From positions 90 to 64,089 of IMG/VR virus record IMGVR_UViG_3300026290_000011: 64,000 bases of DNA, one strand, 5' to 3'. The notes below the pieces were generated by a model. That model saw only the letters and a program-made list of their open reading frames with translations. It had not been told where the DNA came from and searched no databases. This stretch comes from a virus. The stretch's first letter is position 1. Each line of letters opens with the position of its first letter. Shown one piece after another: positions 39,501 to 59,903 of this stretch. A program made the position numbers and the translations under genes.

Positions 39501-42239
39501 TTAGATTTTGATTCATGGTTAGAACAAAAATATCCCAACGAAATAGGGCAACAAATTTCAGCCCAAGACAGAACCCAACTTGTTAAGGAATGGGAAAAGC
39601 AAGTTGGAGATAAGAGCCAAAAAGTTCAATATCTTCCAATAACCGACGCAATGCGTAGTTCAGTATTATTTGAAGGACAGGCGTTATTCCAAAAGCTCCC
39701 GCAAGAACAAGTCAACGTAGAACAGAGAGGAAAGGAAATATACGATTCTGGTAAGACCCGTTACGCAGAATGGGTTAAGGAGATGAGGAAGGAGTTTGGG
39801 GAAAACCAAGATTATAGAAGTATTTATTTATTATCAAAAGTGAAAGATAGCTCTAAATTTAAGACCGATATAACAGCAGATATTTATGAAATGAACCGCA
39901 AAAACAGACAGGGCAAACTTTCCGAAAGTATCGGTAGGGAAAGTAAATCCGCCGTAGAATTTATGAGGAATAAACTTGTCCCGATTAGCACAAGACTTGG
40001 GAACATAGCTCCATCGTTAAAAAGTAGGTTAAGAGAATTTGAATTTGATTATGGCAAAGAAGTAACCGTACAACTAAAAAGGGTACAGCCATTTTTACAA
40101 AAGAGTTCGAAACTTGAAAAAGAAATACAGGCAGATTTAGACCTCGCATTAAAGAACGGCGATGTTAAAAAGATAAACGAAATAATAAAGAATAATGACT
40201 TAGAATCCGAATATAAAGAAGTAAGAACCTTGTTAGATGGATTGTATAAAAAAGCTATTGATGTAGGAATAGACTTAGGATATAGAGAAAATTACCATCC
40301 AAGAAGCGTTAAAGACCTTGAAGCGTTTATAGACTACTTTGAGAAATCCGGTGAATGGAATAGGTTCCAAGAATTGATAGACCAAAAGACAATCCAGAAG
40401 GGAGATATATTAACCCTTGAGGAAAAAGTAAACCTTATCAATAATGCGTTACGTGGTTATAATGACGGCATATCGCTTTCTAAAACCGCTAATATGAAAG
40501 AAAGAAAAGTTCCTATTATAGATTCGGAAATAAACAAATTCTATTATGATTCTAACACGTCTCTTGTAAGATACATCAGTGCAGTAAATGAAATTATAGA
40601 AGCGAGAAAATTCTTTGGTAAGAAGAAACAAGCTAAGGTAAGTAGCGAATTAACCGACATCAGGGATAAAACTAAGAGTTTAAGAAAAGCCAAAATTAAT
40701 GCTTTACAGAATCCAAACGGGGTAACGTTATCTATATATTACCAAGCTAAGAATGAGTTAGAAGATGCAAGGAAACAGTCAAAGGATTACCAAGAAAGAC
40801 TTAAACAAAGACGTGAAAAAACCCTTTATGAAAAGAGAATACTTGAAGGGCATACGGAACTAACTAAAAAGAAATTGATTCCGTTAGAAGAATTCAGCAT
40901 CGATAATTCAATAGGTAATTATGTATTGGATTTAATTAAAGAAAACCAACTAAATGCACAGCAAGCGCAAGAAGTTGAAAGTTTACTTAAAGCAAGGTTC
41001 AACCAACACGGAACTTCAGGACTTGTTTCTTCTATGAAAAACATAAGTTATGTAATAGCACTTGGTTCGCCAACGTCCGCAATTACTCAAATTGGCGATT
41101 TAGCCATACCTCTTTATAGGACAGGTCCCTTAAGAACGTTACAGGCGTTAGGGGAATCGGTATTTAATAGAGGAGCAATAAAACTTGAAGATTTAGGAAT
41201 TAACCCGGAGAAGATAGCCCAAGAATTTTCAGACCCAAGAAGAAGATCGAGAATGGTTCAGAAAGTGTTCACTCTTACGGGATTTAATAAAATTGACATA
41301 CTTGGTAAAGAAACGTTAGTGAATGCAACCTTAAAGAAATACCAGAGAAAAGCTAATAATCCTAATAAAGAGTTTCTTAGAAGATTAGAAAAGGTATTTG
41401 AAGGTGAAACAGACCAGGTAATAAAAGACTTACAAAACAAAGAGATTACCGAAAATGTAAAATTGTTATTATTCAATGAGTTATTAGACACTCAACCGAT
41501 AGCACTTTCAGAGATGCCCGAAGGATATTTAACGGCAGGCGATGGAAGAATATTTTATATGTTAAAAACTTTCTTTATTAGAAGAATAGATTACTACAGA
41601 AACGAAACCTTTAAGCTAATGAAGGATAAAGAAACAAGACCGGAAGGGATTAAAAATCTTATTTATTTGACTATATCTATTATGCTAATGGAAGCCGGGG
41701 CAGATGAATTAGAAGATTTATTACTCGGTAGAGAAACATCTCTAAAAGATAGGGTGATAGATAACCTTGCCCGTTTGGTGGGATTTTCAAAATATAGTGT
41801 AGATCAAGTTACAACCAAAGGACTTTTTTCCACAGTAGCCGGAATGATAGTACCTCCGTTTGATTTATTTGATGATATGCAAAAAGACATATTCAATTAT
41901 ATCAATGGTAAAGACGTACCTATTAGAAGCGTAAAAAACATTCCTGTATTAGGCAAGATAGCTTATAATTGGTGGATGGGTGCTTATATGGATAATAAAT
42001 CTTTACTTAGAAAACACGGATTAGATAAATCAGAACAAATTAAAGCCATTAAAGAAAAACAAAAAGAAGTAGACAAATTACGTGAAGACGTTCTTAAGGG
42101 TAAAATAGATAATAGAGTTTACCAGGATGCAAAGGACGACTTAGAATATATGAAACGTGATTCAGAAGATTATGACAGGTATAAATACTTACAGAACGAA
42201 AGGAAAAGAGAGAACGAAAGAATCCTTGAGGGTAGGTAA
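30588..42239 (+). CDS. Giant polyvalent ejection protein (3883 aa)
   Basis: Hydrophobic Gly/Ala segment near aa 380-420; ParB-like fold (IPPVMVY...TLNHSRL); two ART-like segments (VYHST..., FKRWFGKSKVVD...IVYHSS); zincin-like WEEAFH; LVEEVQSDW domain; helical C-terminus. Confidence 0.8.
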   Translation: MLPIKRRPINRNIFGDENEVSTLESPNKTPLNRKPINRDFLSDAPIIEQQETEQSKQPSLATQELNRYFGDPLTGDGQIRQNELGLSNKDKDRVYDIAKKRIKPEDVLGLLEPSQPKGNILSTIIPDAKAEPKFDSFLGDISPIKDTKAQPSTLTPAESTQGFQKESLNRQLLKDIYGLSDEEINKGSSKKAESILLGIEQQGKINQKEYDEIVKSLDTNTKNLEKLHIKINTLKDNIKTPQDLETFNQSIEEYNQLLNQINPSFKRLIELDKSGGELADRSKLAQDYLSRSQREESNVGDLPKEFWKTLKYMPQQAIGGSLEMLNEILAQMNLNKGILYDPEQTAIKKAGTWLREQGKLKERELKPKTGFWGELGSGAATMAIAAPLTAGVSVATGNPVAGFVAGFIPSFVLEGGLAYNEAKEYGLSDKEASLYSLPVGLISGAIEQLSELKILKKLGLTKKIAQEVTEKLAQKKLLPKIGEAMITGAKWEGIEELSQEITQLISESLYKRSEDLPGLNEILERISTSALYGSILGGFMGGGTALLTHPQSKKIAKDLGIRLKAAEERTLQDDTDRIEQINKLFDRKQPIQERTSQPQMGERIIPDAEQQTADLPSLEELQGIKNEPVRTDIAELPKERSTAKDSQEVGEEKTTDFEKVTQRIKEAGITEQQDIEDIIAEAELVQQDEPGKTIDAIIDESLSYYKGLQQPKVDNNANAIKNLAERGRKPEEISKALNVPIEEVAKLVQEKPKTEIAEQKPLEPQPIENVEQSPTKLSNIDYATVEKSLKDIPDLQKKPTGWKLFETKKGEKSFALVDPNTKEYKTFNSYPEAQSYAIDNPITLKEIPSGEIITQKLVQPEPIIDKSIQTDTKVTEQPSNSKEPYDDFINELTNELERSGKQRRKAILEGKQSKATVNIERLANKYNLPKKMVDNLAGIGELSSVDSDPKIIKDVINKSFKQELKKYTDLAEKYKPLEPEMVTDVTPEVANVTKTEKVIKDAQSQLDKLLARRKEIYNLMEQTRDNLQFQKLAKEDSDLIGKINQIEKKYKIGGRGKFGEKTIKDIVNLAVREYQEQPAFISFQFLNPQARGMGIKKLEKAGYNVKKLDDNYIKIEKRIGEEVTKETDVISDKEKIEEKESRVKFYEVAPDEVNVNTEAMQNREAKFSKETYNSIIEDVKSGDFDIANIPPVMVYKDETGKLWTLNHSRLKAYQDLKAEGNEDFQTIPVQEIKAKNLEEAGKLAKEKSNIGAKETPIERAKIYRKDREGGLPENRIIQKAEQLEGRNKNHVINLSYLNPDGKTITSYSNVGENVSGGRVMRDVADYIGEVRKENKELTDLHEDELFEWLYTNGAMDNFKNKIKFKENIESFVKHASFNPNELLGVGKNKVVRGSHTIEVDKKLEGARKRRKDLEKERTDFEAGKTSLPFGLTPKEYLSEISQKIANIDKDILDLTEDRRTAVQSDRLQDDLFSQITEEVENEQAEEIIATRPTEELEELAENTESIEKSKKRISTEEIQQAVDKVEVVIKPKKSAPLIKPPKGTNAVIVTFNNGKVSKLPAKDLDVIGNDYSTVKELSFGNVEFNKSGGLKWDTFKEVKKIVPSEQTLRQSIENEGDSEYLSSVKKDKGAGVNLPENKPQTPEGKKVLPKTVNDLPSLGTDSIGRNIPNWKGSRVYHSTNEQGLKDISQKGYRFLEGDLEDEQMGYYGKAISFTPDLEYTRQFGKYITVAKLSDDIKILNLNNETDWNKYLQLTKNISSDKYGDAIREAGYDGLYDAGAGDLFIVNPKKIKYEGIDKDYEDSQSQLFYEMSREDYGKIKGEKPKFYARFSAHLPDDLKRNWSSWNFGAEGFKGTQEELENYLNSATDELPAFVSGFDIYPGTKNQFDIRELYPNYWVVVDKGFLGGLAGHELEAEDIQSALEEVKKNRHGGTGEGDFFNAEQFIPVYSEEPYGKFGLHILRTEDAEITKEHKALVKQAIENGKIKSHPDYPELSSQPNRTPDKGVQTLNQDILERNDLQKLQDRKRHLELVIEEAGKKNNTKAVTDAKNELKEVNRKLSNRRSKESQFDIFGDAQNQETLFQTNHNKTRTAFNKLSPKEQTKFLNQLEKMLADNWGVEFKNLSKEQAAGITQLLKRMIQLDPDTANLTTVWEEAFHASMIALAKPFAARNMLREAGWNGKGEIWDVVNNQSLRDAHEKLAKDFIKWAESSKEPSTRTEKVFALLKDLWNKIAAFLYQSGFHTHAGYFEMLYSGKLKASAEGINVEDLAQSLAQEINREENFKRWFGKSKVVDKKKNPLIVYHSSTENFDEFQIGDVGFHFGTKEQAEKRASPIYKRGRKPLTRIDENNKVLITSERAGFYPAYLSIQNPIDIIDNGFEDPNAYVESLAESNEMMYDKKLFTRKELDDLSAKLDNVGNKKGFSIIQKFLKDKGFDGIVYFNNFEGDGRSYAAFNPTQIKSIFNRGTFDPNDANILGQSFSPIWFSKLERVIEQKAPNKNINPTSLIAMLKNNGVKDEEIKWLDVKGFLEANPKATKKELIDYVKSNQVEIKEVTKGVSKNIEDQFKENNLKIEINNDETEYQRDGENYYDLIDTKNGHTLFTGDREQVREYVQNDPRFKLGEPTKFEDYKTAGGSNYREVLFTLPDNDTYMQRHNDWINYARSMESKYGGGYYSQMTPEEKIRYKELEDNVGTPKKVFSSSHWDEPNVVAHVRLQDFTDTKGRKVLLVEEVQSDWHQAGKKKGYQGDTLGENYTQGVDAKGRENYKFPNAKWSISKTPSGSYVVLDDEGLAVHRADTFDKAKNEIQKWEFDTKSTPSAPFKSTWHELTLKRVLRLASEEGYDGIALTTGEQQADRYDLSKQVDEIRYDKLKNGDYQVNIFKDGKSIDSKKGDLKSLEDYVGKDIVKKIADNSNPTLNRNDNVEYSGSLKGVDLKVGGEGMKGFYDKMLPSFLNSYAKKWGARVDEITINAEGLDFDSWLEQKYPNEIGQQISAQDRTQLVKEWEKQVGDKSQKVQYLPITDAMRSSVLFEGQALFQKLPQEQVNVEQRGKEIYDSGKTRYAEWVKEMRKEFGENQDYRSIYLLSKVKDSSKFKTDITADIYEMNRKNRQGKLSESIGRESKSAVEFMRNKLVPISTRLGNIAPSLKSRLREFEFDYGKEVTVQLKRVQPFLQKSSKLEKEIQADLDLALKNGDVKKINEIIKNNDLESEYKEVRTLLDGLYKKAIDVGIDLGYRENYHPRSVKDLEAFIDYFEKSGEWNRFQELIDQKTIQKGDILTLEEKVNLINNALRGYNDGISLSKTANMKERKVPIIDSEINKFYYDSNTSLVRYISAVNEIIEARKFFGKKKQAKVSSELTDIRDKTKSLRKAKINALQNPNGVTLSIYYQAKNELEDARKQSKDYQERLKQRREKTLYEKRILEGHTELTKKKLIPLEEFSIDNSIGNYVLDLIKENQLNAQQAQEVESLLKARFNQHGTSGLVSSMKNISYVIALGSPTSAITQIGDLAIPLYRTGPLRTLQALGESVFNRGAIKLEDLGINPEKIAQEFSDPRRRSRMVQKVFTLTGFNKIDILGKETLVNATLKKYQRKANNPNKEFLRRLEKVFEGETDQVIKDLQNKEITENVKLLLFNELLDTQPIALSEMPEGYLTAGDGRIFYMLKTFFIRRIDYYRNETFKLMKDKETRPEGIKNLIYLTISIMLMEAGADELEDLLLGRETSLKDRVIDNLARLVGFSKYSVDQVTTKGLFSTVAGMIVPPFDLFDDMQKDIFNYINGKDVPIRSVKNIPVLGKIAYNWWMGAYMDNKSLLRKHGLDKSEQIKAIKEKQKEVDKLREDVLKGKIDNRVYQDAKDDLEYMKRDSEDYDRYKYLQNERKRENERILEGR

Positions 42240-42567: not shown

Positions 42568-43398
42568 TCATTTTTTATCTAATAATTGCACTAAATCTTC
42601 AATCGACCATAGTTTTTTTGTTAATCCCGCATCCATTGCAGGCGTAACCCTTAAAGATTTATGGATTCTTACAAAGTTATAATACATGAAATGAAGTGCT
42701 ATTGCATGAGCGTGGTTTTCTATCTTCTTAGAAAATCCATTTGTTAGGCGTGTAAATCTTCTCATACTCATTCGCATTGTTAAATTTTGACGTTCAACAA
42801 AACTTGTTGAAATATGTTTTGTCTTAGGTATGCCTGTAACAACATTTACTTTTGTTCCTGTGCATTCTGCCGGACTGTATCTGTGTCCCCTGTCTAAAGA
42901 TTCTCCATATAGTTTTACAAGTTGAGCATAATCTATGTCTGCTCCAAATGTTGTTTCAACAGCTTCTAAGTATGCTTTCAATCCGTCTGTGGTTAATTGT
43001 ACCCGATCACTTAATCTTGATGCTACGTCTTCCATAAATATTTTTGCATATTCTGCATCACGATTTCCAACAAGCCAAGATACTGCAAGTTTAGAATCAG
43101 AGTCTAAAGCAACCCAAGTCCAAACACTTCCAAGCCCAAACTTGCCCTGCATATCTTCGGGAAGATTTTTTTCTTTGGCATAAACGAAAGACCAAATTTC
43201 ATCACATTGAATTCTTTTTGCTTTAACATTTTTTACATTTTCATCGTGGTATTTTTGACAAGCCGTTCCAATATCAACTAATAATTTTGTTACTGTGTTT
43301 ATCGAAACATCTGCAAGTCTTGAAGTTGCTCTTAAACTATTTCCTTCAACAAGTAATCCAACAATCTGAATTCTTTTTTCTGTTGATAGCTTATTCAT
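42568..43398 (-). CDS. IS1-family DDE transposase (single ORF)
   Basis: N-terminal HTH (GNSLRATSRLADVSINTV), CDEIWSFV, LTTDGLKAY, VERQNLTMRM..RRFTR; stop codon lies inside the TIR. Confidence 0.92.
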   Translation of the reverse strand: MNKLSTEKRIQIVGLLVEGNSLRATSRLADVSINTVTKLLVDIGTACQKYHDENVKNVKAKRIQCDEIWSFVYAKEKNLPEDMQGKFGLGSVWTWVALDSDSKLAVSWLVGNRDAEYAKIFMEDVASRLSDRVQLTTDGLKAYLEAVETTFGADIDYAQLVKLYGESLDRGHRYSPAECTGTKVNVVTGIPKTKHISTSFVERQNLTMRMSMRRFTRLTNGFSKKIENHAHAIALHFMYYNFVRIHKSLRVTPAMDAGLTKKLWSIEDLVQLLDKK

Positions 43399-49896: not shown

Positions 49897-50805
49897 ATGT
49901 TTGTAAAATATCAGCACATAGAAAAATATGGAACAGACGAGACCCAAAATATAGAAATAGGAACGTGCTATATTTTCCCAAAAATAGATGGGACAAATGG
50001 AAGTGTATGGATAGAAAATAATATTATTAAAGCGGGTAGTAGAAGAAGAGAATTGAGTTTAGATGACGACAATGCGGGTTTTTATGAGTGGATATTAAAG
50101 CAAGAGAGCTTAAAACGCTTTTTGGAAGCATACCCTCATTTAAGACTATTTGGAGAATGGTTAGTTCCTCATAGTCTAAAAACTTATAGAGATGATGCCT
50201 GGGGAAAGTTTTATGTTTTTGATGTATGCCAAACAAGAGATGGCGATGAAGATGAACTATTAAAGTATCTAAGATACGAAGATTACAAACCTTTGTTAGA
50301 CCAGTTTGGTATTGAATATATACCCCCTATAAGGATTATTAAAAATGGTAGTTATGAAGATTTTATAAAACTTTTAGAAAGCAATAACTATTTAGTAAAA
50401 GATGGATTTGGTAGCGGAGAGGGTGTTGTAATTAAAAACTATAGTTATGAAAACAAATATAAACGACAAACGTGGGCAAAAATAGTAACAAGCGAATTCA
50501 AAGAAAAACATCACAAAGAAATGGGTGCGCCTATTGTGAATGGCAAACAGCTAATCGAAGATGAAATAGTAAAAGATTTTTGCACAGATGCTTTAATAAA
50601 AAAAACGTTTGGGAAAATTAAAGCTGAGAACGATGGATGGAATAGTAGATATATACCGCAACTTTTAGGGCGTGTTTGGCATGATTTAATTAAAGAAGAA
50701 ACTTGGACTTTCATTAAGAAATTTAAAAACCCGATTATAAATTTCAAAACATTACAATACAAGGTAACTTTAAAGATAAAAGAAACATTACCCGAAATTT
50801 TTTAA
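49897..50805 (+). CDS. RNA ligase (Rnl2-like nucleotidyltransferase)
   Basis: Motif I PKIDGTN, FGEW, FYVFD, EGVVIK, AKIV. Confidence 0.8.
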   Translation: MFVKYQHIEKYGTDETQNIEIGTCYIFPKIDGTNGSVWIENNIIKAGSRRRELSLDDDNAGFYEWILKQESLKRFLEAYPHLRLFGEWLVPHSLKTYRDDAWGKFYVFDVCQTRDGDEDELLKYLRYEDYKPLLDQFGIEYIPPIRIIKNGSYEDFIKLLESNNYLVKDGFGSGEGVVIKNYSYENKYKRQTWAKIVTSEFKEKHHKEMGAPIVNGKQLIEDEIVKDFCTDALIKKTFGKIKAENDGWNSRYIPQLLGRVWHDLIKEETWTFIKKFKNPIINFKTLQYKVTLKIKETLPEIF

Positions 50806-51183: not shown

Positions 51184-51257
51184 AGGATGATAGCCGTTTT
51201 TCGGTATAACGATGTTGCGGTTAAGTTGCCTCTGGAAATTTTTATAGGGATAAAATA

Positions 51258-51587
51258 ATGAACAACAAAATTTATAAATGTATTCACTGTGGCAGAAACT
51301 TAGGCGATAAAGTGCCACATAGATGCAAAGGAACATTTAGAAAGAGAAAGTTACAATTTCGCAATCGGTTAAGCGGTCAACTTAAACCGCTTGTTATACC
51401 GAAAACGGCGGAAGTAGCCTTCTCGGAAGAATTAAACAAAATAATTGAAGCTGGCAATAAATTAGCCGAAGCAGCACATAAAGTTCAATCTGATTATGAC
51501 GGCATACATAGATTAAGATTAGCACTGTCAGAGTGGTATAAAGTGAGAGCTAATGAGTTTGACCGTGATAGCCGTTTTTCGGTATAA
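51258..51587 (+). CDS. Cassette 1 gene, CxxC zinc-finger hypothetical protein
   Basis: Starts in the attC loop, crosses GTT (51393) as Val, stops at the core TAA. Confidence 0.7.
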   Translation: MNNKIYKCIHCGRNLGDKVPHRCKGTFRKRKLQFRNRLSGQLKPLVIPKTAEVAFSEELNKIIEAGNKLAEAAHKVQSDYDGIHRLRLALSEWYKVRANEFDRDSRFSV

Positions 51588-51709
51588 CGGAATGGAAACT
51601 AAAGCGCAAAAAACTTATGAATGAATTAAATAAATATTTATAAACTAAATTATGCCAACAATCCTTAACTAACCAGCGATATTTTTTGTCGCTTTGAGTT
51701 TTTATTTAG

Positions 51710-51979
51710 TTGGATTTGAGGCGGGAGAAACTTATGAATTTTAAAAAAGGTGATAAGATAGAATGGACTTATGAACATTCTTTGAATCGAAAATCTAAAA
51801 CTCATATAACTAAAACCGGCATTTTTATTAGGGTACTTGATATGAGAAAATTAAGCAGAGCGAGAAGGATTCCGCAATATAATAGCGAAATATCATCTTA
51901 TGCAATAGTACATTTTGATGGGAATAAAAACCCGTCTAAAGTTTTAATTAATGAATTGCGAGCCGCAAATTCCAACTAA
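51710..51979 (+). CDS. Cassette 2 gene, SH3/KOW-like hypothetical protein (likely start 51734)
   Basis: FKKGDKIEW...TGIFIRV; GGGAG RBS before ATG 51734; stop is the core TAA. Confidence 0.65.
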   Translation: MDLRREKLMNFKKGDKIEWTYEHSLNRKSKTHITKTGIFIRVLDMRKLSRARRIPQYNSEISSYAIVHFDGNKNPSKVLINELRAANSN

Positions 51980-52033
51980 CGCTGCGGTTTTTAAGCCGTT
52001 GCGGAAATATTAACAATTTAATTTGAGGATAAA

Positions 52034-52393
52034 ATGAACACAGAAGAAAAGAAATTGCACAAAGAAATTGTTGAAGAATTAAAAAATAAAGGATGGACTA
52101 ACCCAGCAATAAATGAAAGTTTTGCACAGGAATTAATTTTAGATGTTTACAAGATAGCAAGCAATCGGCTTGAAAAAATTGTTAGCCAGAAAACGGCGGG
52201 CGGATGGAGAGACGCAAAGAAAGACCCGCCAGAGTTATCAACATCAATGAAAATAAATGCAGTATTAGTTATACACAGAAATTATATAAAATTTGGATGG
52301 AAAACAGAGATTGGGTGGCATATAGAAAATTCGCCAAGTTATTGGGACGAAGAAATTAAATATTGGATGCCATTACCAGAATTGCCAGAATGA
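52034..52393 (+). CDS. Cassette 3 gene, DUF551-like protein
   Basis: WRDAKKDPP...YWMPLPELP; crosses GTT 52181 as Val. Confidence 0.65.
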   Translation: MNTEEKKLHKEIVEELKNKGWTNPAINESFAQELILDVYKIASNRLEKIVSQKTAGGWRDAKKDPPELSTSMKINAVLVIHRNYIKFGWKTEIGWHIENSPSYWDEEIKYWMPLPELPE

Positions 52394-52566
52394 TAGCCGT
52401 TTTTCTGGCTAACAGATTTGCAACTAACAAGATTGCGGAAGCAAAGAATGAACTTAGATTTTTTAATTAACATAAAATTATTAACAAACAAAAATAGCCA
52501 AACCGTAATAGCAATTCTTTGTTGATTGCCTTGTTATACGGATTTTGGCGGACATAGGAGTATCTA

Positions 52567-52845
52567 ATGGAATTTACAAAAGAAGAAATATTGCAGTGCA
52601 TTAGCGGAGAATTGCTTGCCGAATGTATAGCAGATAAAATATTACAGAACAAAAAAAATCATTTTGAGGAATTTGATAAAGCCCTAATCGAGGGTATGAG
52701 AAAAGCTGCACGGATGGTAGTTGACGAACTGATTAAAGAATATGATTTTGAGAAGGAAATACAGACAAGAGTCAAAAACACTTTAACCAGTATGACGAAA
52801 GCGGAAGTATTAAGGCTTATAGCGAAAGAGGAAGTTATTTTTTAA
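52567..52845 (+). CDS. Cassette 4 gene, hypothetical protein
   Basis: AGGAG RBS just downstream of GTT 52533. Confidence 0.65.
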   Translation: MEFTKEEILQCISGELLAECIADKILQNKKNHFEEFDKALIEGMRKAARMVVDELIKEYDFEKEIQTRVKNTLTSMTKAEVLRLIAKEEVIF

Positions 52846-52930
52846 GGAATGCGAGCCAAAATTCCGTATAACGGATCGAGCATAAGCAGTTGCGGTAACA
52901 AATAAAAAAACTAAACAATAGGAGTTACAA

Positions 52931-53266
52931 ATGGAAACAGTAGTAAAAATTAAATGGGACGAACCGAGCGATAAAAATTGGTTGTGTCCAGACAACATCA
53001 AAACGGCTTTAAGTGCTTATTGCACAAATACAAAATTTGAGGTAAGCGAGGTTGATAGCAATCTGCTTGATGCGCAAGTTAGCCAAGCCGTTTCTCAGGC
53101 GATGCCGGAGCCGAACTCTCAAGTTTGCGCTAATTGTAAGTGGCTGGCTGATAGAGATGGAGAGAACAACTATTTCTGTAATTGTTATGAATCAGAAACT
53201 TGTGATATACTAATCATTTTGAAAGATACATTCGGGTGCAACAAATTTGAGCGCAAACTTTTGTGA
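52931..53266 (+). CDS. Cassette 5 gene, Cys-rich hypothetical protein
   Basis: AGGAG RBS in the loop; CANC...C.C...C; crosses GTT 53078 as Val. Confidence 0.65.
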   Translation: METVVKIKWDEPSDKNWLCPDNIKTALSAYCTNTKFEVSEVDSNLLDAQVSQAVSQAMPEPNSQVCANCKWLADRDGENNYFCNCYESETCDILIILKDTFGCNKFERKLL

Positions 53267-53429
53267 GGCGAAGGACTGGCTAACATTGTTGCAATTTACC
53301 CGATTGCGTGCATTGACAAATTGTTTTTATTAAAAGTTTAATGCCTTAAACAAGGCAAATTATAAACGACCGTATCTGATAGCAATTCGGAGTAGAATTG
53401 CGAGTTAGGCGGTAAAATTTGGACGTATT

Positions 53430-53642
53430 ATGAAAAAGAAAAAATTGAGTTGCTATTTTTATTTTGTAGGATGGGACTGTCTAAGTTTCGGAATTCATTT
53501 CTGTTGGAGACTGCCCAATATCGAAATACATATTCCCTTCGGATTTATAAGAATAGGTATAGAGAATCATTACGGGAAATGTATAAACGATGATTTCTGT
53601 AATAAAAGAACTTTTGGGTGGACGAAAATTTTATCCGCCTAA
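53430..53642 (+). CDS. Cassette 6 gene, hypothetical protein
   Basis: Starts after GTT 53404; stop is the core TAA. Confidence 0.55.
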   Translation: MKKKKLSCYFYFVGWDCLSFGIHFCWRLPNIEIHIPFGFIRIGIENHYGKCINDDFCNKRTFGWTKILSA

Positions 53643-53669
53643 CGAGTGGAAACTTACCCGATTGCGTAA

Positions 53670-54476
53670 ATGAAAAAGGAAAACATTTTGAAAGAAGAAA
53701 CTAACATAACAGCACAAACTAAACAGCCCGAAGATAAAAGCAATTCGGGTAGAGTTTTTAGTTATGTGCCGTTTTATGATTTAGATAATATTACATTGTT
53801 TAATAATGATTACCGAAATGTAATTGATAGCCTTGCGCCCGCAGATTTGATTATTGCCGATCCTCCTTATGGGGAAAAACAAGCAAGTTGGGATGAGGAG
53901 AAACCAGATGAAGAAGTTTGGCGGACATTCTATGATAAATTAAAAGACGGTGGTGTTTTATATTATTGGGGTTTTTGGGGGCACGCTGAATGGATATTGA
54001 GAAATGCAAGGCGAGCGGGTTTTACTGAACAGAGTAGAATCGTTTGGTGGTTTGCAACAGGAAGACCAGAGAAAAAAAGTTATAGGGAAGATACAGAAGA
54101 TTGTTATTACTTTTCTAAGGGTGAACCAAATTACTTCAATCCGAATAATTATTACGAACCTTATGACAAAGTTTCTAATTACGAACGATATAATAAAAAC
54201 GGCAAACATCCAGGAACGATATGGCGAGCGAGTCGGATAATGTGGAATCATCCCGAAAATGTCGGGCACGAAACCCAAAAACCCCTTACGCTTTATAAAA
54301 AAATAATTGATATATCTTGTCCGCCAAACGGCATTGTTTACGATTTCTTTTGTGGAAGCGGAACGACTTTATTAGCAGCTAAACAGTTGGGGCGCAAGGC
54401 GGTCGGAATAGAAAAAGAAGAAAAATATTGCAATATAATAACGAAGAGACTAAGCCAAATGGAAATGCAACTTTGA
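53670..54476 (+). CDS. Cassette 7 gene, beta-class N6A/N4C DNA methyltransferase
   Basis: ADPPY precedes HETQKP and DFFCGSGTT. Confidence 0.9.
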   Translation: MKKENILKEETNITAQTKQPEDKSNSGRVFSYVPFYDLDNITLFNNDYRNVIDSLAPADLIIADPPYGEKQASWDEEKPDEEVWRTFYDKLKDGGVLYYWGFWGHAEWILRNARRAGFTEQSRIVWWFATGRPEKKSYREDTEDCYYFSKGEPNYFNPNNYYEPYDKVSNYERYNKNGKHPGTIWRASRIMWNHPENVGHETQKPLTLYKKIIDISCPPNGIVYDFFCGSGTTLLAAKQLGRKAVGIEKEEKYCNIITKRLSQMEMQL

Positions 54477-54573
54477 AAAAATGAGGCACATAACGGAGTT
54501 GCGGCTAAGCGGTGCCGGAAAGGTAAGCACAAAACAGATTTGAATAACATAACCATAAACAAGGAGTAGTAAC

Positions 54574-54765
54574 ATGATTAATATAAGTGATTTAAACGAA
54601 CTCTATTCTGCCGTGCAAATGCTTGAAAGCATGACACAATTAGTAGAAAGTCTTAATAGTAAGACCAATAATAATATTTATGAAGAAACTAAATACGCGA
54701 GGATAGCAATTAAGCGAGCAAAAGAAGCGTATGAGAAAATTAAGACCTCTACCTATGTTAGTTAA
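54574..54765 (+). CDS. Hypothetical protein lying wholly inside the cassette 8 attC loop
   Basis: AAGGAG RBS; lies between the L arms at 54500-54515 and 54774-54791. Confidence 0.55.
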   Translation: MINISDLNELYSAVQMLESMTQLVESLNSKTNNNIYEETKYARIAIKRAKEAYEKIKTSTYVS

Positions 54766-55348
54766 AAATGATAGGCATCCGCTTGAGCCGCTTGTTATGC
54801 CGTTTGGGCACGACAAGAAATACGATATAATATTGGCAGACCCACCTTGGAATATACGCTGGGGAGGAAGTAACAGCATAGGGTTGAAACCTTTACAATA
54901 CCCCACAATGCTAATAACGGAACTTTGCCAATTGCCCGTTAAACAAATTGCAAATGATTGTAGCAAACTATTTTTGTGGACAACCAACGGCTTCTTGCCC
55001 GAAGCGTTGGGGATATTAAAATTTTGGGGTTTCCAATATGATAAACTTTGGACATGGTGCAAACCAACTGGAGCCGGAGGACACCCCAGAAATGCAACAG
55101 AACATTTAATTGAAGCAAGTAGAGGCGCAGTAAAGAGTATAGGCAGACATGAAAAAGCAGTAAACAATTGGTTTGAAGCCCCAACGCAAGGGCATAGCAC
55201 AAAACCAGAAAAGGCAAGAAGATTGATAGAATATTGTTACCCTAATACAACTAAGATTGAATTATTTGCAAGGCGTAAAGCCGTTGGTTGGGATGTGTGG
55301 GGGAACGAACTTGAAAATAGTATAGAGTTAGTGCCCAAATCGGCATAA
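54731..55348 (+). CDS. Cassette 8 gene, MT-A70-family adenine methyltransferase
   Basis: ILADPPW, LFLWTT, HSTKP, IELFAR; true start may be nearer 54797. Confidence 0.88.
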   Translation: MRKLRPLPMLVKNDRHPLEPLVMPFGHDKKYDIILADPPWNIRWGGSNSIGLKPLQYPTMLITELCQLPVKQIANDCSKLFLWTTNGFLPEALGILKFWGFQYDKLWTWCKPTGAGGHPRNATEHLIEASRGAVKSIGRHEKAVNNWFEAPTQGHSTKPEKARRLIEYCYPNTTKIELFARRKAVGWDVWGNELENSIELVPKSA

Positions 55349-55394
55349 CATATTGCGGTTAACCTTGCGAGCGGACTAAAACAGAAATGAAATT

Positions 55395-56048
55395 ATGAAA
55401 GAAAAAACAGGACAAAATAAAAATACTGAATTGACTGAGCGAATAGCGAAGTCAAGCGTTGAACCGCCAGTTATGCAGTTTGGGCACTGTAAGAAGTATA
55501 ATATTATTTACGCTGACCCACCGTGGTATAGAGGGCAAAGGATGTATAGCAGCAATAAGAACGACCACCACGTTGAAGCAGATAGACATTACCCGATTAT
55601 GAAAAAGAAAGCACTTTGCGATTTACCCATAAAACAAATTGCGGCGGATGATAGTGTATTATTTATGTGGGTTACTGACAGCAACTTAGACGAAGCAATG
55701 GGAGTCATTAAAGCGTGGGGGTTTAAGTATAAAACAGTTGCATTTATTTGGCTAAAGAAAGAAAAAAGCGGGAAGCAAGTTTGCTTTATGGGTTGTTGGA
55801 CTATGAAAAATGCGGAAATAGTTTTGTTGGCAACAAGGGGGAGAATGACTAAACACTTAAAAAGTCGCAAAGTGCGCCAATTACAAGAGGCAATAAGAGA
55901 GCGTAAGATACACAGCAGGAAACCACAAATAATTAGGGATAGGATAGTGGAAATGTTTGGGGATGAGCTACCTAAAATAGAATTATTTGCAAGGGAAAGG
56001 ATAGAAGGTTGGGATGCGTGGGGAAATGAAGTGCCCAAATCTGCATAA
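55395..56048 (+). CDS. Cassette 9 gene, MT-A70-family adenine methyltransferase
   Basis: IYADPPW, LFMWVT, HSRKP, IELFAR. Confidence 0.9.
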   Translation: MKEKTGQNKNTELTERIAKSSVEPPVMQFGHCKKYNIIYADPPWYRGQRMYSSNKNDHHVEADRHYPIMKKKALCDLPIKQIAADDSVLFMWVTDSNLDEAMGVIKAWGFKYKTVAFIWLKKEKSGKQVCFMGCWTMKNAEIVLLATRGRMTKHLKSRKVRQLQEAIRERKIHSRKPQIIRDRIVEMFGDELPKIELFARERIEGWDAWGNEVPKSA

Positions 56049-56075
56049 CGGTCAAAACTAAAGCGCAAAAACGGA

Positions 56076-56387
56076 TTGAATAAATTAAATGAATTACAAA
56101 CTAAAATAAGCCAAAAACCAACAACCCCAAGCGATGCTTTTGTCGCTTTGAGTTTGTTGTTGGTTTGCAAAAGGGCGGGAGTAAAAGATATGAAAATTAA
56201 AGAAGGTGGATCAACACAAAATATTAGGGGTAAGAAAATTGAGGAAATAAAAATTAATTGGACACAAAGTGAAAGTTATATATTTGAAATGTGGGTAAAT
56301 GATAGTTTGTCATACTTGACAATTAATGAATTGTTAGAATTAAAAACCGAAATACAAAAGGCATTAGATAAAGCGGTTAAATCTTAG
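56076..56387 (+). CDS. Cassette 10 gene, hypothetical protein
   Basis: Crosses GTT 56159; an internal ATG with RBS gives a shorter alternative. Confidence 0.5.
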   Translation: MNKLNELQTKISQKPTTPSDAFVALSLLLVCKRAGVKDMKIKEGGSTQNIRGKKIEEIKINWTQSESYIFEMWVNDSLSYLTINELLELKTEIQKALDKAVKS

Positions 56388-56456
56388 CCCTTTTGTCAAA
56401 CTAACGGAGTTGGCGATAATGCGCTATCACAAAATTAAAACAAAAGGAATGATGCA

Positions 56457-56819
56457 ATGGAAAACCAAAACAGAATTTACAAACTACTACTCGGAGTCGC
56501 ATTGATTGCCGAGTTAGTGGGATTTGCGCTCGTCCATTTCGATAACACAAAAAAACAAGAAAGAATTGAGCGACTTGAAAAGATTATTAACAACACACAT
56601 TTAGATACGCTGATTACAAAAACAGAAAGTATAAATATTGATGGTTGGTGGAGAAATTATTCTTCTTGGGAAGAACCTCTTAATCTTTTAGAAATGAATG
56701 ATAAACTTGATAAACTTATAAAAGCTACTGGTTATGAATATACGAGAGAAGTGCGATACAAGACTACACATTACGAAGATAGTAAACTTGAAAAAATAAA
56801 GAGCGCAAATTCCAACTAA
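56457..56819 (+). CDS. Cassette 11 gene, membrane-anchored hypothetical protein
   Basis: TM segment LLLGVALIAELVGFALV is encoded by the L arm and core; stop is the core TAA. Confidence 0.6.
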   Translation: MENQNRIYKLLLGVALIAELVGFALVHFDNTKKQERIERLEKIINNTHLDTLITKTESINIDGWWRNYSSWEEPLNLLEMNDKLDKLIKATGYEYTREVRYKTTHYEDSKLEKIKSANSN

Positions 56820-56862
56820 CGGTGTGGTTTTTTACCCGCACGGCTAAACAGAAAAAAATATT

Positions 56863-57501
56863 ATGGATGAAAATTTGGAACTAAAAGAGAACAAAATTAA
56901 CAGCACAAATTTAAGTGTCGGAGTAGAAAAACTTGTTAGCCCGATTGGGCACAACAAGAAATATAATGTTATTTATGCCGATCCGCCGTGGAGTTATAGT
57001 GACCAAGGATGCCAAGGAACGATGGCGAACCATTACCCCGGAATGAGCATGGACGAAATGAAGCAATTGCCGATAAAAGAAATTGCAGACAAAGATTGCA
57101 TTTTATTTATGTGGACTACTTACCCAATGTTGAAAGAAAGTTTAGAGCTGATAGACGCATGGGGATTCACATACAAAACAATCGCATTTAACTGGATTAA
57201 GAAAAACAAGAGCGATGCTGGGTTCTTCTTCGGGCTTGGAAGATGGACGAGGGGTAATGGTGAGCCGTGCCTTTTGGCGACAAAGGGGAAACCCAAAAGA
57301 GTAGCAAATAATATAAGCCAATTAATATTTGCCCCATTGACGAGACATAGTGAAAAACCCCCAGAGGTTAGGGATAAAATAGTTGAGCTTTGCGGGGACA
57401 TACCGAGAATAGAATTGTTTGCGCGCCAAAAGGCAAGTGGTTGGGATAGATGGGGTAATGAACTTGATAATAGTATAAACCTTGTGCCCAATTCGGGCTA
57501 A
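56863..57501 (+). CDS. Cassette 12 gene, MT-A70-family adenine methyltransferase
   Basis: IYADPPW, LFMWTT, HSEKP, IELFAR. Confidence 0.9.
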   Translation: MDENLELKENKINSTNLSVGVEKLVSPIGHNKKYNVIYADPPWSYSDQGCQGTMANHYPGMSMDEMKQLPIKEIADKDCILFMWTTYPMLKESLELIDAWGFTYKTIAFNWIKKNKSDAGFFFGLGRWTRGNGEPCLLATKGKPKRVANNISQLIFAPLTRHSEKPPEVRDKIVELCGDIPRIELFARQKASGWDRWGNELDNSINLVPNSG

Positions 57502-57549
57502 CGATGTTGCGGTTAAGTTGCCTCTGGAAATTTTTATAGGGATAAAATA

Positions 57550-57879
57550 ATGAACAACAAAATTTATAAATGTATTCACTGTGGCAGAAACTTAGGCGAT
57601 AAAGTGCCACATAGATGCAAAGGAACATTTAGAAAGAGAAAGTTACAATTTCGCAATCGGTTAAGCGGTCAACTTAAACCGCTTGTTATACCGAAAACGG
57701 CGGAAGTAGCCTTCTCGGAAGAATTAAACAAAATAATTGAAGCTGGCAATAAATTAGCCGAAGCAGCACATAAAGTTCAATCTGATTATGACGGCATACA
57801 TAGATTAAGATTAGCACTGTCAGAGTGGTATAAAGTGAGAGCTAATGAGTTTGACCGTGATAGCCGTTTTTCGGTATAA
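57550..57879 (+). CDS. Cassette 13 gene (duplicate of cassette 1)
   Basis: Identical translation. Confidence 0.7.
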   Translation: MNNKIYKCIHCGRNLGDKVPHRCKGTFRKRKLQFRNRLSGQLKPLVIPKTAEVAFSEELNKIIEAGNKLAEAAHKVQSDYDGIHRLRLALSEWYKVRANEFDRDSRFSV

Positions 57880-58001
57880 CGGAATGGAAACTAAAGCGCA
57901 AAAAACTTATGAATGAATTAAATAAATATTTATAAACTAAATTATGCCAACAATCCTTAACTAACCAGCGATATTTTTTGTCGCTTTGAGTTTTTATTTA
58001 G

Positions 58002-58271
58002 TTGGATTTGAGGCGGGAGAAACTTATGAATTTTAAAAAAGGTGATAAGATAGAATGGACTTATGAACATTCTTTGAATCGAAAATCTAAAACTCATATA
58101 ACTAAAACCGGCATTTTTATTAGGGTACTTGATATGAGAAAATTAAGCAGAGCGAGAAGGATTCCGCAATATAATAGCGAAATATCATCTTATGCAATAG
58201 TACATTTTGATGGGAATAAAAACCCGTCTAAAGTTTTAATTAATGAATTGCGAGCCGCAAATTCCAACTAA
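58002..58271 (+). CDS. Cassette 14 gene (duplicate of cassette 2)
   Basis: Identical translation. Confidence 0.65.
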   Translation: MDLRREKLMNFKKGDKIEWTYEHSLNRKSKTHITKTGIFIRVLDMRKLSRARRIPQYNSEISSYAIVHFDGNKNPSKVLINELRAANSN

Positions 58272-58329
58272 CGCTGCGGTTTTTAAGCCGTTGCGGAATA
58301 TTTATAAATTTAATTTGGAGTAGAAAACC

Positions 58330-58743
58330 TTGAAAGAAATAATTGATTTGATTGACAAATATTGGAAATTTGACGAAGACCAACAACCATTGTCAAGCTG
58401 GCACGATAAACAAGAATTATTGCAGATCATTAGCAATCGGCTTGAAAAACTTGTTAGCCAGAAAACGGCGGACACAGAAGAAATACTGAGCGCGGTTAAA
58501 GACACTATTTCTGATGGACAATTAATGAGTATGGAAGAATCTACAGAGAAGGAATTACAAAAACATTATGATAAAACTTTAACGGTACCCTTAATTGTAG
58601 GGTTAATAAATAATATTGAGCAATACTATCCAGCCGATGTTTTTGTAAGCGGTGCGGGGGCGATGGCGAGACACGTTTTGAAACTATTCAAACAAGAGTT
58701 AATACTTGCTTGCAAGATAGAGGATAGCCGTTTTTCTGGCTAA
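58330..58743 (+). CDS. Cassette 15 gene, hypothetical protein
   Basis: Shares SNRLEK-VSQKTA arm peptide with cassette 3; stop is the core TAA. Confidence 0.6.
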   Translation: MKEIIDLIDKYWKFDEDQQPLSSWHDKQELLQIISNRLEKLVSQKTADTEEILSAVKDTISDGQLMSMEESTEKELQKHYDKTLTVPLIVGLINNIEQYYPADVFVSGAGAMARHVLKLFKQELILACKIEDSRFSG

Positions 58744-58818
58744 CGATGTGGCAAATAGCCCGAAACGGCTTTGTAAAACAAAATTAATTAACAAATAATT
58801 TAGCTATGAGGCACACCG

Positions 58819-59067
58819 ATGGAAGGTGAACAAGATTTTAGAAATAGATTTATAAACGAAGCATTAGAGATTTGTGAAAGTCATAAACCTTTAATGACAG
58901 ATTGGGAAAGAAACTTTGTAATTGATATTGCAAGATTGCATAGAAAGAGTGGGAAAGGATTGACGCAAAAACAATACAACCAATTACAACTTATTGCTGC
59001 AAATGTTAAAAGACAAATTAATGAGGTGTGCCGGAATGAATATCCTTACCCAACCTATGAAAGATAG
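58819..59067 (+). CDS. Hypothetical protein inside the cassette 16 attC loop
   Basis: GAGG RBS; MTDWERNFV...LTQKQ phage motif; ends just before the 3' L arm. Confidence 0.6.
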   Translation: MEGEQDFRNRFINEALEICESHKPLMTDWERNFVIDIARLHRKSGKGLTQKQYNQLQLIAANVKRQINEVCRNEYPYPTYER

Positions 59068-59842
59068 TTTTCGGGCTGATTTGCTTGTTGGGCTGCCGAC
59101 AATAAACGTAAACGAAATTACTCTTGGCGATAGTTTAGAGCTGTGTGAGCGAATACCCGCCAAAACCGTTGACTTGATACTTGAGGACATGCCTTACAAT
59201 ACAACTGCTTGCGGCTGGGATAAAAAGATTGATTTAGAACTTTACTGGAAAACAAGATTAAGAATATTAAAGCCAACGGGCGTAGTAGTTTTGACAGCGA
59301 GCCAGCCGTTTACCGCTGAGTTGTTAATGAGTAACAAAACAATGTTCAAATATGAATGGATTTGGAAACGCGATAGAGTAACGGGATTTTTGAATGCTAA
59401 AATTATGCCGATGAAAGAACACGAATCAATTTTAGTGTTCGCAGAAAAAATACAAAAATATTATCCAATAAAATGGCTTGGCAGGAAAGCGCATAAGAAA
59501 GGAAAAATTGTTGGGAAAAAGGTAAACGGCGGAACTTATGGAAATTTTACTGCGGTTGATAGCATAAATGACTGGAAATACCCGACAAGTATTTTAGAAT
59601 TTGATAGACCTCATCCACCGATACACCCAACGCAAAAGCCCGTTGGCTTATTCGAATATTTGATTAGAACTTATACTGATGAGAACGATTTAGTATTTGA
59701 CGGTTTTGGCGGAAGTGGGACAACCGCTATTGCTTGCCATAGAAGCAAACGAAATTTTATCGTGATTGAGAAAGGATATACATATTATGACTTAGCAACA
59801 AAGCGGTTGGACAATGAGCGAACACAACTTAGTTTATTGTAA
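58994..59842 (+). CDS. Cassette 16 gene, beta-class DNA methyltransferase
   Basis: LEDMPY, HPTQKP, DGFGGSGTT; start probably nearer 59058. Confidence 0.88.
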   Translation: MLQMLKDKLMRCAGMNILTQPMKDSFRADLLVGLPTINVNEITLGDSLELCERIPAKTVDLILEDMPYNTTACGWDKKIDLELYWKTRLRILKPTGVVVLTASQPFTAELLMSNKTMFKYEWIWKRDRVTGFLNAKIMPMKEHESILVFAEKIQKYYPIKWLGRKAHKKGKIVGKKVNGGTYGNFTAVDSINDWKYPTSILEFDRPHPPIHPTQKPVGLFEYLIRTYTDENDLVFDGFGGSGTTAIACHRSKRNFIVIEKGYTYYDLATKRLDNERTQLSLL

Positions 59843-59903
59843 CGAGGTCAGCCCAACTATGTAATGACCAGACTAATTTGCAACGAAACGTTTATAAGGT
59901 ATT

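Follow-up and report, generated by a model that had tools for sequence, protein, structure and literature searches.

A probable integron-type cassette array with coding attC loops in a complete phage genome

The DNA analysed here (the window) comprises 64,000 nt, positions 90 to 64,089, of the IMG/VR virus record IMGVR_UViG_3300026290_000011, which is 64,270 bp long and rated complete; the window covers nearly all of this record, and nearly all of its genes lie on the + strand. By reading of the sequence and location of motifs, 16 attC-type hairpin sites were found on the + strand between 51207 and 59089, and the region of 51.2-59.9 kb is probably an integron-type cassette array of reversed polarity without an integrase of its own, that is, a cluster of attC sites lacking integron integrases (CALIN). 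A CALIN is recognized by two or more attC sites and the lack of a nearby integron integrase, as is the case for these 16 sites, and the intI gene that adjoins the array of a complete integron was not found in the window. The array indicates that functional coding sequence, from start signals and domain-sized N-termini to whole genes, can reside in the variable loop of an integron site, with arms that covary and a cassette that is mobile as a unit.

Along the + strand, each site is proposed to consist of a TAA|C box containing the crossover, a short 5′ spacer, an L stem, a variable loop (the variable terminal structure, VTS) and a second L stem with an extra T and an extra G placed 6 bp apart, followed by a still shorter spacer, the GTT box and a bracket of 12-14 bp. 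The AAC box was present at all 16 sites and the GTT box at 14, with TTT in its place at sites 2 and 14. The 3′ arm on the + strand always carried two bases more than the 5′ arm; an extra G was seen at -9 from GTT in 14 of the 16 sites (an A in sites 1 and 13), and an extra T 6 bp further in. The double-prime arm of folded attC bottom strands has two conserved extrahelical bases, T and G (PMC2727003). The L stem was predicted by RNAalifold from 27 sites of ~118 nt taken from 8 contigs, with compensatory changes at 12 of 12 pairs, and its frequent G-U pairs exist on the + strand only. The L boxes were thus kept by structure and not by sequence, as revealed by this covariation and by the double compensatory changes between site 16 and its counterpart in the related Logan contig L083, where the arms GCAAAT/ATTTGC of the window are replaced with GCATTT/AAATGC. 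From this comparison, the 342-nt loop of site 16 is evidently a maintained structure that has moved as part of its cassette.

The bracket, the first 12-14 bp after each GTTA box, was found to be the reverse complement of the last bases of its own cassette before TAAC, often with one bulged T, and it did not match the neighbouring cassette (51393-59857). A local-pairing scanner requiring only TAAC, GTT and arm pairing (score >=10) recovered 12 of the 16 sites and gave no other + strand match in the 64 kb, while shuffled sequence yielded 0-3 matches. Folding of single sites by minimum free energy (MFE) gave weak z-scores, from 0 to -0.7 for sites 9, 11 and 12; the MFE fold of sites 7 and 11 was not attC-like, site 7 reaching a z of -2.7 for a different fold. 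The fold of relatives was strong, with a z of -3.8. Covariation was judged a better test than such single-site folding.

L083 is a phage contig with terminase, portal and capsid genes, and its segment 8100-13821 is a complete integron in which at least six cassettes of the reversed type, with RNA ligases among them, are followed by a co-directional integron integrase. This integrase, a tyrosine recombinase, scored 349 bits on TIGR02249 against a cut-off of 265. Because this homologous array adjoins an integron integrase, the window sites are taken to be attC sites of a real integron system.

Since the extrahelical T and G are on the 3′ arm of the + strand and the G-U pairs on that strand only, the coding (+) strand appears to behave as the attC bottom strand, and the crossover is therefore expected at TAA|C of the 5′ box. 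Together with the position of the extrahelical bases, the homology breakpoints and the position of intI in L083 give three lines for this assignment. An 800-bp duplication (51207-52006 versus 57499-58298, 99-100% identity), comprising two whole cassettes with the site pairs 1/13 and 2/14, was found to start at TAAC and to end 26 nt inside the next site. The last cassette of the array (58741-59857, ~1.1 kb) matched L083 at 83% identity over a segment bounded exactly by TAAC and CCCAAC, and the sequences flanking this segment were unrelated on either side; the 3′ bracket and CCCAAC at 59844-59857 close this cassette, and the homology to L083 ends there. From breakpoints at TAAC or CAAC and from the IntI of L083, recombination at AA|C by an integron integrase is predicted. 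With the crossover at TAA|C, the cassette would be C, attC, body and TAA, and the loop and the downstream body would therefore form one mobile unit. Each hairpin is thus placed at the 5′ end of its own gene, and by this arrangement a loop-coded start evidently belongs to its own cassette, with no neighbouring site supplying it. The idea, implicit in the original prediction, of a recombination site that donates N-termini was not supported, as the three lines put the crossover at TAA|C and the loop and body into one cassette. Ten of the 16 cassettes use the TAA of the following TAAC as their stop codon. All array ORFs (open reading frames) are on the strand with the bottom-strand features, and 11 of 16 start within attC; a canonical cassette has a top-strand ORF, a 3′ attC and a start downstream of the preceding attC, an arrangement that the window cassettes do not show.

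If the polarity were canonical, the + strand would be the top strand with the crossover at G|TT, and the attC of the upstream cassette would donate the ribosome site, the start and the N-terminus. It is true that a conserved arm and bracket joins different loops and bodies (window sites 3 and 15; contigs L082 and L090) and that 14 of the 16 window sites have a 3′ arm without a stop in the GTT reading frame. Nevertheless, we consider this very unlikely, since the extrahelical T and G stand on the + strand 3′ arm, as in a bottom strand, both the duplication and the cassette shared by site 16 and L083 start at TAAC and not at GTT, and the intI of L083 is on the side expected when the + strand is the bottom strand. 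Site 16 would furthermore have to belong to two unrelated upstream cassettes, carrying a 137-aa ORF in the window and an RNA ligase in L083.

ORFs that start in the loop and read through the 3′ arm and GTT were found at sites 1, 3, 5, 7, 8, 9, 11, 12, 13, 15 and 16. A leader or Shine-Dalgarno sequence and the start codon are located 27-59 nt after TAAC, 13-49 codons follow in the loop, and these continue in frame through the 3′ arm, GTT and the bracket into the body. The original prediction had counted twelve such units over the whole array from 51.2 kb, although its coordinates span sites 8-16 only; eleven of them stand, and the twelfth is doubtful. This is site 10 (56046-56161; here and below, the site is followed by the positions of the C of TAAC and the G of GTT, here 56049 and 56159), whose 109-nt loop offers only TTG, and a better and likely start, an ATG with a GGGAG ribosome site, is found downstream at 56190. 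Loop length is given as the stretch between the TAAC and GTT boxes. Nine sites had loops of 107-120 nt and five had loops of 180-205 nt, and the two largest belonged to site 8 (299 nt) and site 16 (342 nt); the AAC-to-GTT span including the boxes was 113-348 nt over the 16 sites, in agreement with the predicted 120 to 345 bp or so.

All sites and ORFs described in the following are on the + strand. Site 1 (51207-51395; 51210 and 51393) has a loop of 182 nt with a ribosome site and 45 codons of ORF 51258-51587, and its duplicate, site 13 (57499-57687; 57502 and 57685), has a loop of the same length with 45 zinc-ribbon-like codons (CxxC...HxC) of ORF 57550-57879. The 200-nt loop of site 3 (51977-52183; 51980 and 52181) carries a GAGGA ribosome site and 49 codons of ORF 52034-52393, whose body we take to be DUF551-like, and the 205-nt loop of site 5 (52869-53080; 52872 and 53078) carries an AGGAG ribosome site and 49 codons of ORF 52931-53266. 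At site 15 (58269-58455; 58272 and 58453; loop 180 nt) ORF 58330-58743 starts at TTG 58330, with 41 of its codons and a GGAG ribosome site in the loop. ATG 53670 in the 117-nt loop of site 7 (53640-53763; 53643 and 53761) starts an N6_N4 methyltransferase ORF (53670-54476), for which GTG 53766 just past GTT is an alternative, and ATG 56457 in the 107-nt loop of site 11 (56402-56515; 56405 and 56513) starts ORF 56457-56819; at the latter site the 3′ arm, GTT box and bracket, as read from the sequence, encode a hydrophobic helix-like stretch. The longer loop segments are domain-sized, with 41-49 codons in the window and up to 64 in the related viral contig L081.

To what extent these frames exceed chance was judged from 47 non-redundant sites of nine contigs, 25 of which had an in-frame loop ATG with no stop before the body versus 6.5 expected from shuffled loop interiors (500 shuffles, maximum 13); in-frame loop starts were thus about four times as frequent as chance. 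In units 1/13, 12 and 16, the region from GTT to the conserved parts is devoid of start codons. For the third MT-A70 methyltransferase of the array the next in-frame start, at 57022, is past the DPPW motif, and for the last methyltransferase (59036-59842) the next start after GTT is inside the catalytic motif. The loop codons of ORF 57550 were compared with the 109-aa gene of L081, which revealed 11 synonymous and 4 non-synonymous changes, a ratio of non-synonymous to synonymous rates (dN/dS) of 0.06, and third codon positions holding 10 of the 15 changes. The 45-codon N-terminus of sites 1/13, the sole longer loop segment tested, is by this measure constrained. For the 109-aa protein, an AlphaFold model built on an alignment of two sequences was uninformative, with a predicted local distance difference test (pLDDT) of ~50-60 over the N-terminal half, and searches of Pfam and PHROGs with the loop ORFs and the small two-part proteins returned no significant match.

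Real starts that all lie at or after GTT, with loop ORFs as chance open frames in untranslated spacers, would fit the ATG or GTG right after GTT in units 7, 8 and 9, the MT-A70 homologues that align only from residue 33 or start downstream of GTT in arrays with ~80-nt sites, and the one leader without purifying selection. Such an explanation is nevertheless highly improbable in view of the dN/dS of 0.06-0.12 on loop-coded sequence, the loop ATGs at 25 sites versus 6.5 expected, and units 1/13, 12 and 16, which would be left without a start before their catalytic or conserved parts. Moreover, frames of 41-64 codons are open in at least eight independent sites, each with a probability of only ~0.01-0.05 at a stop-triplet frequency of 0.069. 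The claim that the recombination site is itself protein-coding is therefore upheld at the level of sequence by purifying selection, by loop starts at about four times chance and by the units without a downstream start.

The GTT box was an in-frame Val codon at sites 1, 3, 5, 8, 9, 12, 13, 15 and 16, and the predicted count of nine holds; the independent cases are fewer, because sites 1/13 are duplicates, sites 3/15 have the same arms and sites 8/9/12 carry paralogous MT-A70 genes. From -33 to +21, no stop interrupted the frame with GTT as Val in 14 of the 16 window sites, and the same held for 23 of 36 sites of relatives (chance ~0.28), and one alternative frame was usually shut by a TGA at -10, around the extrahelical G, and by the TAG in GTTAG. 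As a rule, "GTT is Val in 9 of 12" was rejected in view of the stops in one other frame, the shared ancestry and the three offsets seen in relatives; the preference for Val is probably in part a by-product of these stops and of common descent.

Both of the complete loop ORFs of the original prediction were present. The first, a 63-aa gene at 54574-54765 with an AGGAG ribosome site, is entirely within the 299-nt loop of site 8 (54491-54796; 54494 and 54794), a site with 16-bp arm pairing and the extrahelical T and G, which also holds possible starts of the first MT-A70 gene. The second, an 82-aa gene at 58819-59067 with a GAGG ribosome site, is entirely within the 342-nt loop of site 16 (58741-59089; 58744 and 59087), together with the first 17 codons of the N6_N4 DNA methyltransferase (59036-59842) starting at ATG 59036, with which it overlaps by 32 nt. 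The dN/dS was 0.12 for the 63-aa gene versus its homologue in contig L084, and 0.10 for the 82-aa gene versus L083, where an 84% identical homologue occupies the same position. Both ORFs are, on these comparisons, evidently real genes under purifying selection. The equivalent of ATG 59036 is conserved in L083 and that of ATG 59057 is not; because only the former is kept, the methyltransferase probably starts 17 codons inside loop 16. The two loop genes overlap the loop starts of the methyltransferases (54731 or 54755 possible; 59036 conserved) by 11-35 nt. Furthermore, a second large site in L083 has a loop of 333 nt holding a 72-aa ORF.

In a library of 1.8 billion proteins, four homologues of the same length as the 63-aa protein were obtained (P0004-P0007), and on the two contigs examined these were free-standing, with no attC arms around them. 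Because of these homologues outside attC, loop 8 is likely to have acquired an independent gene at some point. Of the proposal that the site itself captures cargo, this acquisition stands, and an active mechanism of capture found no support. We looked for inner recombination boxes for the loop genes and found none; nested or fused cassettes were thus dropped as an account of the big loops, whose outer arms pair and covary and in which no inner GTT/TAAC pair frames the inner ORFs.

The three MT-A70 genes gave a different picture with respect to the origin of loop-coded residues. MT-A70 no. 1 (54755-55348), whose stop is the TAA of the next TAAC, has candidate starts at 54731 and 54755 in the loop and a native-like one at 54797, right after GTT. 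Site 9 (55346-55472; 55349 and 55470; loop 120 nt) has ATG 55395, which provides a 25-codon leader for MT-A70 no. 2 (55395-56048), and an alternative ATG 55473; at site 12 (56817-56937; 56820 and 56935; loop 114 nt) ATG 56863 is the sole usable start of MT-A70 no. 3 (56863-57501). For MT-A70 no. 2, the alignment to eighty viral homologues begins only at residue 33, and in arrays with ~80-nt sites the homologous MT-A70 genes start 25-100 nt downstream of GTT. The MT-A70 loop leaders are thus best described as add-ons without counterpart in free-standing homologues. MT-A70 no. 1 and no. 2 appear to have retained a native-like start in addition to the in-frame loop start, which would make the leader optional at sites 8 and 9, and MT-A70 no. 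3, with AGC instead of the native ATG, would depend on its loop start. The original prediction had proposed comparing N-termini with homologues outside arrays to see whether they are add-ons; this applies to the short MT-A70 leaders and not to the longer segment of sites 1/13, which is constrained. As a side observation, the 5′ bracket of the MT-A70 cassettes (55470-56049, and in contig L092) encodes a native-looking N-terminus, MPFGH, and the reverse complement of the bracket adds PKSA and a stop after the native C-terminus WGNEV, which may hint at the origin of such cassettes.

A further feature of the array is the mosaic arrangement of its parts. Sites 3 and 15 of the window have arms and bracket in common and differ in loop interior and body; the body of site 3 was found in L082 with a different loop, and in L090 the same bracket is combined with yet another loop and another body, the third of each. 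MT-A70 no. 2 was 80% identical to a gene of contig L001 having quite different arms and bracket. These combinations suggest either that one attC type is reused or that exchange takes place via the short conserved arms. The linker EKLVSQKTA, encoded by the bracket region, joins at least four loop modules and three bodies in window sites 3 and 15, L082 and L090. Tentatively, attC could offer two slots for cargo, loop and body, connected by a translatable linker (3′ arm, GTT and bracket), with modules swapped via near-identical arms; we think this rather unlikely, and if true, such a two-slot attC would represent domain shuffling linked to integrons, with an N-terminal loop module and a C-terminal body module. 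In addition, the bracket GTTAGCCAGAAAACGGCGG / CCGTTTTTCTGGCTAAC was observed to serve at least three unrelated bodies.

With respect to the content of the loops, the loop is the only structurally unconstrained part of attC, and the 5′ coding content of the cassette has probably moved there, its codons forming either an unconstrained leader or a small N-terminal domain. In mRNA, attC hairpins reportedly impede translation of the cassette that follows, an effect that short ORFs located in attC are reported to alleviate (PMC8876359). A start codon in the unpaired loop would avoid such a block; the ribosome would melt the 3′ arm, which may be the simplest route of expression for a reversed cassette under phage read-through transcription, and a loop-borne start would also save space in a packaged genome. 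Recombination is presumably performed by an IntI of the host or of a co-infecting element on single-stranded phage DNA, and phage replication may supply such DNA for the sites with long loops.

Several observations weigh against a reversed integron array with coding loops. The textbook attC spacer is symmetric, whereas in the window sites the R and L stems are separated by 5-7 nt on the 5′ side but by 2-3 nt on the 3′ side, an asymmetric spacer. The complete 64-kb record gave no match to TIGR02249 and no tblastn match to the L083 IntI. The 17-codon loop leader at 59036 showed 8 non-synonymous changes and 1 synonymous change, i.e., no purifying selection, in a tiny sample that lies in an overlapping ORF. 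Besides the start codons right after GTT in units 7, 8 and 9, free-standing homologues of MT-A70 no. 1 begin with MTMPFPNKKY, which aligns with VMPFGHDKKY from the ATG just after GTT. The mosaic breakpoints of window sites 3 and 15, L082 and L090 are near GTT and the bracket, away from AAC, and because of this location a single TAA|C crossover leaves them unexplained. Finally, a drop in attC recombination of up to four logs was reported for long loops, with delivery of single-stranded DNA as the exception (PMC8946536), and the largest sites may for this reason be nearly fixed.

That the hairpins are RNA elements only, such as processing or translational-control stems of a polycistronic mRNA, and no recombination sites at all, is extremely unlikely. 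The folded strand is indeed mRNA-sense and carries G-U pairs, and start codons do lie in the unpaired loop, but the AAC box is the exact point at which gene blocks were gained and lost, the homologous L083 array adjoins a bona fide integron integrase, the geometry of the extrahelical T and G is attC-like, and an Rfam scan of 50.5-60.2 kb at E<=1 returned zero families. An RNA role in addition to recombination is compatible with these data. Single-strand transposition of the HUH (IS200/IS605) type with a TAAC target was dropped given the extrahelical T/G geometry and the IntI of L083.

Classical whole attC sites are ~57-141 bp long. The window sites resemble them (59-base elements; Vibrio VCRs, the Vibrio cholerae repeats) in having an AAC and a GTT box, L boxes that pair, a T and a G separated by 6 bp and a variable loop, and differ in the extra stem of 12-14 bp beyond the R boxes and in the coding loops and 3′ arms. 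An unpaired spacer is present as well, but its asymmetry may set the window sites apart. The attC loop has a reported range of 20-100 nt (PMC4889954); nine window sites are near its upper end with 107-120 nt between boxes, and seven are beyond it with 180-342 nt, the VTS being roughly 140-300 nt in these 7 of 16.

CALINs and integrons, with DNA methyltransferase cassettes, were described in phage genomes, including virulent phages, and phage attC sites were recombined by IntI1 (Qi et al., 2023, PMC9892861). The present array is similar to those phage CALINs in having an attC array, no phage integrase and methyltransferase cassettes, and different in that all genes are on the attC bottom strand with attC before the gene and in that coding loops reach 342 nt; neither feature is described in that paper. 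A likeness is also seen to the short attC ORFs and to ORF-11 of attI1 (Jacquier et al., 2009, reviewed in PMC8876359), in which an ORF starting in the site opens the hairpin and couples to the next gene. Those known ORFs encode short top-strand peptides that are unfused to the cassette protein, whereas in the window the loop ORF is the N-terminus of the cassette protein, a segment of the size of a folded domain or a conserved independent gene. We found no paper that describes reversed polarity, coding attC loops of such a size, or domains and genes carried in loops. Phage CALINs and short attC ORFs were known before; the window adds the range of loop size, the signs of selection on loop-coded sequence, a loop gene with a free-standing homologue and a large-loop cassette in two contexts. 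Promoter-early stem-loops (PeSLs) of T4-type phages carry promoters and act through homologous recombination, and are not known to have integrase-type boxes, extrahelical bases or coding loops; they are similar to the window sites as repeated structured intergenic modules with expression signals that flank shuffled accessory phage genes.

Search tools for attC that set a length limit or assume genes between sites would miss or mis-annotate such cassettes, and gene callers may shorten their proteins; the default attC length limit of IntegronFinder is 200 nt. The layout is also suited to tests of translation past attC hairpins, and the loops and reversed polarity point to a phage-specific cassette pool rich in DNA methyltransferases, likely anti-restriction genes.

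The remaining sites have their ORF starts downstream. Site 2 (51585-51711; 51588 and 51709) has a non-coding loop of ~114-120 nt, an ORF start at 51734 and a degenerate 3′ box, TTTAG, at 51703; its duplicate, site 14 (57877-58003; 57880 and 58001), likewise has a non-coding loop, with the ORF start at 58026 and TTTAG at 57995. The loops of site 4 (52410-52535; 52413 and 52533) and site 6 (53281-53406; 53284 and 53404) are both 119 nt, with ORF starts at 52567 and 53430, respectively. In sites with the gene start downstream of GTT, a loop ORF of 30-40 codons often ends at or just past that start codon, a coupling geometry exemplified by L081:3158-3262, L083:11066-11185 and L083:11566-11664. Non-coding loops of the site 2, 10 and 14 type contain a small hairpin followed by a T-rich run with a terminator-like score (51675-51703, 56129-56158 and 57967-57995); over the array, promoter-like or terminator-like sites were not enriched.

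The array is preceded by an RNA-ligase gene at 49897-50805, and from there up to ~59.9 kb follow small genes and five genes for DNA methyltransferases, three of the MT-A70 and two of the N6_N4 type. A megablast search of the array against 50,697 phage records gave zero matches, and terminase relatives were below 33% identity. In L083, a short GTTACCC...GGGTAAC element was observed just before intI and may mark attI. Another phage array (L066:8592-12460 and L086:1444-2277) has sites of ~80 and ~118 nt and, ~400 nt downstream, a 277-aa Xer-like tyrosine recombinase without the integron-specific insert, whose best model was of the XerA type with 194 bits, under the cut-off of that model. Upstream in the window, 42568-43398 on the - strand is a 276-aa ORF with weak matches to IS1-type DDE transposases and is the sole sizeable minus-strand gene near the array, and one ORF of 3883 aa spans 30588-42239.

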